A stretch of 29,724 nucleotides of DNA from an uncultured Francisellaceae bacterium (GTDB lineage: Bacteria > Pseudomonadota > Gammaproteobacteria > Francisellales > CACEW01), in contig CAJQSL010000089.1 in the NCBI GenBank assembly GCA_905612315.1, positions 1 through 29,724 of the forward strand. The letters are read 5' to 3'. Position numbers and translations under genes: made by a program. The stretch's first letter is position 1; every line of letters starts with the position of its first letter. Positions 8,448 through 8,667 of this stretch are shown one piece after another. A model generated the notes under the pieces. The model was not told the DNA's origin and searched no databases. It saw only the letters and a program-made list of their open reading frames with translations.

Positions 8448-8549
8448 TGGAGATAGTTCTGGGTAGCCTGGCTTAATATGTTTTAATATATTGGTAGCTG
8501 CACTAGCATTAATGCTAAGAAGAGCAGAAGAAATAGTTGCTAATAATAG

Positions 8550-8560
8550 TTTTTTTTTTT
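8550..8560 (-). repeat. Homopolymeric tract: 11 T on the + strand, equal to 11 A in the OMP mRNA, within the signal-peptide n-region. It frameshifts the OMP gene.
   Basis: From ATG 8572, translation reads M L I S K K K N Y Y stop. With 12 A (or 9), the reading would be MLISKKKKLLLATISSALLSINASA... continuous into the 7203..8447 ORF. GAGGG lies 4 nt upstream of ATG 8572. Confidence 0.8.
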
Positions 8561-8667
8561 GGATATAAGCATAGTGCCCTCACTAAATATTAAATTAATC
8601 TTATGTTCAAAATTTGTACATAAATTAACTTTAGTTGAGGGGTTAAATAAAAGATTGTTTTTTTAAG

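Follow-up and report, generated by a model that had tools for sequence, protein, structure and literature searches.

In the Neisseria opa genes and in H. pylori oipA/hopZ, a repeat in the 5′ signal-peptide region sets the reading frame of an outer-membrane protein ON or OFF, and these repeats are conserved and length-polymorphic among strains; by slipped-strand mispairing, long homopolymers such as a run of 11 A's (A11) mutate at a high rate. Long A runs are also associated with frame repair in the RNA. The C. rodentium tssM1 and Y. pseudotuberculosis tssM3 genes each contain an uninterrupted A11 within the ORF, and added A's restore the frame; tssM1 transcripts have 10–15 A's at this position with ∼20–25% frame restoration, and the full-length form makes up ∼20–25% of the product (PMC4256274). 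In E. coli and Buchnera, single-A insertions increase exponentially with A/T run length, and +1 A is the commonest product of polymerase slippage (PMC5574713); A or T runs of nine already slip (PMC5009743). The AT-rich genomes of Buchnera and Blochmannia likewise have frameshifts in long A runs of otherwise intact genes, with partial rescue at the RNA level (PMC5009743, PMC5574713). Among outer-membrane proteins, LbtU of Legionella is a TonB-independent legiobactin receptor (PMC5378763).

The window analyzed here, a 29,724-nt stretch of bacterial DNA, carries an uninterrupted A11 on its minus strand (bp 8550–8560) within the signal-peptide part of an outer-membrane porin gene, where, as in opa and oipA/hopZ, the tract decides the frame. 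The true start of the gene is the ATG at bp 8570–8572, which also starts the intact 457-amino-acid orthologs P0001 and P0163 and the fragment P0162 discussed below; a Shine-Dalgarno-like GAGGG (bp 8577–8581), read directly from the sequence, lies 4 nt 5′ of it. As assembled, and as the original prediction had it, this ATG opens only a short frame (bp 8540–8572; codons ATG CTT ATA TCC AAA AAA AAA AAC TAT TAT TAG) that reads MLISKKKNYY and stops at the TAG at 8542–8540. Adding one A to the run gives a 456-amino-acid ORF and removing two gives one of 455 amino acids; both end at bp 7203 and begin MLISKKK(K)LLLATISSALLSINASA|ATN, so that a signal peptide continuous with the barrel ORF is indeed obtained with one more A. 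The pre-protein N-terminus after frame repair is MLISKKKKLLLATISSALLSINASA|ATN. The hydrophobic core and cleavage region of the signal peptide (LLLATISSALLSINASA; bp 8499–8549, minus strand) lie in the barrel frame and align with the signal peptides of all family members, and the cleavage site is predicted from its A-x-A motif.

The window is an NCBI contig in its entirety, and its deposited record carries this gene as a 414-amino-acid product. The corresponding ORF (bp 7203–8447, minus strand) is real, but its first Met (bp 8447) is M43, an invariant internal residue of the family, and the conserved family residues G36, Y37, P38, L40, and P42 map upstream of it. The true start must therefore lie upstream of bp 8447, and the 414-amino-acid product is a truncated call. 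The barrel frame is open from a TGA at 8582–8580 onward, and between that codon and bp 8447 it contains no ATG, GTG, or TTG, so no canonical alternative start exists; the earlier statement was that the frame has no alternative start with an RBS. An alternative in-frame start was rejected, since the sole near-cognate codon there is an ATC (8564–8562) 12 nt past the Shine-Dalgarno sequence, which could give trace initiation at most. A promoter scan between the porin gene and the tRNA fragment described below found nothing convincing. Downstream, a 17-bp inverted repeat (bp 7154–7193, 94% complementary) lies between the porin gene and the convergent SPFH gene and is probably a bidirectional terminator.

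The mature porin (bp 7203–8498 on the minus strand, stop codon included) is a predicted 16-stranded β-barrel ending in Phe (C-terminus ...LTAMF). The AlphaFold2 model of the 97% identical intact ortholog P0001 has 16 strands with pLDDT 70–84, although its mean pLDDT is only 59 and its loops are disordered, and a Foldseek search with it against the PDB matched only porins, including PorB, MOMP, OprP, and OmpF, with a probability of 1.00. The model and these porin-only matches confirm the outer-membrane barrel that had been read from the sequence. A Pfam search found no match, and NCBIfam LbtU_sider_porin (NF033652) matches residues 161–456 with 69 bits (E = 4.6e-19), below the curated cut-off of 90 bits; family relatives P0013–P0037, on the other hand, score 99–136 bits and so lie above it. 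The close family is tiny (12 clusters among 5.8 billion proteins, and seven clusters at E ≤ 1e-30 in a 50% representative library) and shades into 779 distant relatives; the sampled ones score above the LbtU cut-off, and a subset also shows similarity to FslE/DUF3573 and Porin_4. Like LbtU of Legionella and FslE/FupA of Francisella, which come from the same broad taxonomic neighborhood, the modeled protein has a signal peptide, an approximately 16-stranded barrel, and a C-terminal Phe, and has no plug or periplasmic domain. It differs from the LbtU family in its sub-cut-off score and in its surroundings, where neither siderophore genes nor a Fur box accompany it. The gene encodes a secreted 16-stranded protein of the general-porin type, in a small clade distantly related to the LbtU/FslE porins.

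A siderophore receptor role was considered and rejected: the best match in a Fur box search was 11/19, which is at background level, and no siderophore or iron genes (lbtA/B-like neighbors) lie near the porin. Its region instead contains genes for an SPFH protein, an AAA ATPase, tRNA-Met, ruvB, and tolQR, and with these neighbors and the absence of a Fur box a siderophore role is unsupported. Marine (TARA) homologs occur in tandem arrays of two or three paralogs among housekeeping genes, which looks more like the arrangement of a major general porin; no second, compensating porin paralog is present within the window. On two TARA contigs (L082, bp 10,001–12,937, and L083), spoU and lolB flank tandem paralogs of the family. 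A TARA paralog pair has an identical signal-peptide region (first 60 nt) but divergent mature parts, which suggests gene conversion or constraint at the 5′ ends.

At a 90% identity threshold the window allele clusters with three alleles from independent assemblies, four members in all. These are P0001 (457 amino acids; locus L001, Logan ERR13319468), P0163 (457 amino acids; locus L084, an 8.4-kb syntenic contig, ENA ERZ24794642), and P0162 (a 170-amino-acid fragment; locus L085, NCBI GCA_029936035.1), and they are 97–99% identical to the window. All three read TCC-AAAAAAAA-C-AAA-CTA at the tract, that is, A8-C-A3, a 12-nt stretch that is in frame and encodes S-K-K-N-K-L (KKNK across the tract itself). 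The window alone does not have the C (alignment gap at bp 8553), and its tract is otherwise the same. The four alleles fall on two haplotype backgrounds, one with ATGCTT and GAGGGC (L085 and the window) and one with ATGCCT and GAGGAC (L001 and L084); the Shine-Dalgarno sequence is thus GAGGG in L085 and GAGGA in L001 and L084. Since A8-C-A3 occurs on both backgrounds, parsimony makes the 12-nt tract ancestral and the A11 of the window derived. No pure length variant (A10, A12, or A13) was found among the four alleles, and distant paralogs encode S-K-K with A7 only. This comparison of the tract among related strains, with an in-frame A8-C-A3 in three of three and only A7 in distant paralogs, speaks against the classic contingency locus of the original prediction, as does the depletion of longer runs in the window described below.

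A global alignment of the window with L084 spans 8.4 kb at 96.0% identity, with 307 substitutions and five indels; four of these are 3, 3, 9, and 6 nt long, and the 1-nt gap at bp 8553 is the only one that is not a multiple of three. Similarly, the alignment of L085 with the window has exactly one gap in 919 bp. The last ∼120 bp of the L085 contig (JAPOGK010238775.1; bp 936–1056) do not align with the window, and P0162 has a nonhomologous C-terminus; the end of that contig is probably chimeric or rearranged. A scan of GTDB species genomes with the family alignment found no relative, so the lineage has no representative genome there; JGI metagenome contigs gave no match to the exact 5′ end with any tract length, and no match in a protein alignment scan. 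The window's RuvB is at most 69% identical to that of any GTDB species representative, the nearest being from Legionellaceae and other Gammaproteobacteria, which identifies the organism as an uncharacterized, deep-branching, Legionellales-like lineage with 36% GC.

Outside the tract, the window porin gene contains no further stops or frameshifts. Its dN/dS is 0.39 against L084 and 0.36 against L001, and the barrel core is under strong purifying selection. Because nothing has decayed elsewhere in the gene, a real lesion would be very recent and confined to this strain. The exception to this conservation is a predicted surface loop (residues 287–320, bp 7614–7715 on the minus strand), which is hypervariable: it holds 10 of the 13 nonsynonymous differences and a 3-nt indel relative to L084 and L001, relatives that are otherwise ∼99% identical. 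This loop has low pLDDT in the AlphaFold2 model; it is predicted to be external, and diversifying selection or recombination may act on it.

The A11 is the longest homopolymer in the window, and the second longest is 8 nt. Composition by itself does not make it improbable, as an A11 run turns up in 60 of 100 dinucleotide shuffles; its significance lies in its position and in the contrast with the relatives. The run-length distribution of the window has a sharp cut-off. A/T runs of 7 nt number 33 against ∼21 expected, whereas runs of 8, 9, 10, and 11 nt number 3, 0, 0, and 1 against 8.1, 3.1, 1.3, and 0.4 expected (30 kb sampled). Runs of at least 8 nt are therefore depleted (4 observed, ∼13 expected), with the A11 as the lone outlier. 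So sharp a cut-off suggests that slippery runs are selected against in this genome (36% GC), the opposite of what a contingency-rich genome would show. The same runs bear on sequence quality: all 36 A/T runs of 7–8 nt leave their ORFs intact, and all 27 ORFs of the window look intact, so base-level accuracy is good and the assembly is not generally indel-prone.

The reading that we favor, at a probability of roughly 0.5, is that the window carries a derived, strain-specific loss of one C that has produced a leaky loss-of-function allele and not an evolved switch. The ancestral lysine-rich signal-peptide start, with its S-K-K-N-K-L codons, would have lost the single C; the loss would shift the frame by one, so that the start codon now leads only to a 10-residue peptide, and would join the A8 and A3 segments into the uninterrupted A11. 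The resulting tract is an A run of at least 9 nt on the coding strand in which +1 A restores the frame, the configuration that permits rescue by slippage. Provided that the lesion exists in the DNA, a fraction of transcripts would gain one A by RNA polymerase slippage on the A11, a −1 ribosomal slip on A-AAA-AAA could achieve the same repair, and either would restore the full pre-protein at a reduced level. Replication slippage from A11 to A12 would moreover revert the gene at a high rate. Such leakiness and reversion would be by-products of a fresh mutation; transcriptional slippage at the A11 is plausible as an incidental rescue of a new lesion and not as a conserved mechanism. In this respect the locus parts from tssM1, whose frameshift is stable and whose two products are both needed, whereas the window frameshift is absent from the relatives and lies at codon 8, where it yields a useless 10-residue peptide, and slippage here is a prediction from the run. 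Partial RNA-level rescue of the kind seen in Buchnera and Blochmannia would be expected, but in those endosymbionts long A runs abound and certain frameshifts have been conserved, unlike the strain-specific lesion in a window depleted of runs of at least 8 nt.

The strongest competitor is a consensus or assembly error, in which the true genomic tract is A8-C-A3 (or A12), the porin gene is intact, and a base was lost in base-calling, polishing, or assembly. Sequencing platform errors concentrate at homopolymer-type stretches, and this tract is the window's most error-prone 12-mer on any platform, so an artifact predicts a defect at just this site. Every related allele is intact at the tract, and the sole frame-breaking difference in 8.4 kb falls in the window's longest A-rich, lowest-complexity stretch. 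The absence of other damage and the purifying selection on the gene fit an intact gene as well as they fit a fresh lesion. Replication slippage does not usually remove a base, such as this C, that is not part of a repeat; the loss calls for a direct deletion of 1 nt or, alternatively, for mutation of the C to A and then a slip that shortens A12 to A11. Against an error, a C dropped from between A runs is not a simple miscall of homopolymer length, all 27 ORFs are intact with their 7- to 8-nt A/T runs in frame, and no other 1-nt indel separates the window from L084, even across 1 kb of intergenic DNA. The gap is the sole 1-nt indel in that 8.4 kb, and the 29.7 kb of the window show no other indel noise. 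The balance between the two leans mildly toward a real lesion, with error a serious contender that falls somewhat short of even odds, and the caution about homopolymer sequencing error that accompanied the original prediction was apt and still stands.

The idea of phase variation, a hypermutable slipped-strand switch between ON (A12/A9) and OFF (A11/A10) states in the population, draws on an 11-nt homopolymer that lies in the first 25 nt of the ORF for a surface protein, on a length sufficient for a high mutation rate, and on the hypervariable loop, which suggests external selection. In the opa and oipA/hopZ systems the repeat itself is conserved, but here the homopolymer is found only in the OFF allele, and the tract of the relatives is interrupted by the C, with all three ON. 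Together with the A7 of the distant paralogs and the depletion of runs of at least 8 nt in the window, which has none of 9–10 nt, these interrupted alleles argue that the tract is not a maintained hypermutable repeat; nor do the four alleles include an A10, A12, or A13. Phase variation in this established sense is improbable. A nascent contingency locus in a single strain, in which the base loss has itself created a new A11/A12 switch and a mix of ON (A12) and OFF (A11) cells, perhaps under phage or host pressure on a major porin with an already hypervariable surface loop, is similarly doubtful. Least credible by far is a selected frameshift with the full-length porin made at a set level through −1 ribosomal frameshifting or transcriptional slippage. 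A-AAA-AAA is a perfect −1 slippery heptamer in the zero frame and the needed +1 A is the commonest polymerase slippage product, but the frameshift is conserved in none of the relatives, the nonshifted product is the useless 10-residue peptide, and predicted folding is no better than that of shuffled sequences (z = 0.29 for the 80 nt past the tract and z = 1.01 for the 161-nt 5′ region). With neither a downstream stimulatory RNA structure nor conservation, programmed recoding was rejected.

The DNA around the porin gene has features of its own. A tRNA-Met gene lies at bp 10,504–10,580 on the minus strand, and a 54-nt, 96% identical direct copy of its 3′ half (bp 8665–8718 and 10,498–10,551) is found just upstream of the porin gene. 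Bp 8719–10,497, between the two copies, contain an AAA_14/DUF4143 ATPase gene, and L084, L001, and L085 share this arrangement; it resembles the att-site duplication that integration of an element at the tRNA gene would leave behind. Identity to L084 is 98.3% for the porin and 99.3% for the ATPase gene, against 94.3% for the SPFH gene, 96.4% for ruvB, and 93.3% for tolQ; the segment at bp 7203–10,352 is thus closer to L084 than its flanks are, a pattern that fits a recent exchange between strains of the segment next to the tRNA gene. Three tandem 33-nt repeats with 73% identity, which contain an inverted repeat, overlap a 95-nt “tRNA-Val(aac)” reported by ARAGORN without Rfam support (bp 8899–8997 and 8939–9033), and this tRNA call is probably false.

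On the other side, bp 3080–7123 (plus strand) encode a 1347-amino-acid protein with a single SPFH/Band-7 domain at residues 807–1000, a long Ala/Gln/Glu/Lys-rich repetitive region with 33-nt periodic repeats (bp 6252–6726), and a Met/Gly/Gln-rich C-terminus, an unusual architecture for a bacterial SPFH protein. The 3′ end of this gene (...MAPFMAAMGNGGGA... at bp 7021–7084) is duplicated with 90–95% identity 2 kb away at bp 9033–9105, where it forms a short orphan ORF (bp 9049–9156). The porin gene lies between the two copies of the SPFH gene end, a position suggestive of an insertion or rearrangement of the porin segment.

The event at the porin tract is of an ordinary kind, a homopolymer-associated frameshift allele or error in an unusual and poorly sampled lineage, and because the comparative data show no conserved regulatory device its general significance is limited. 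Should it be an artifact, the lesson is one of annotation, in that the deposited 414-amino-acid protein starts at an internal Met and has no signal peptide. If real, it would be an environmental example of an A11 at which slippage can rescue expression, and, since the run has the length of that in tssM1, leaky expression and frequent reversion would be expected. With a real lesion, the strain would produce only small amounts of this loop-variable porin, which is kept intact in its relatives; this would hint at selection against the porin by phage, host, or predator.
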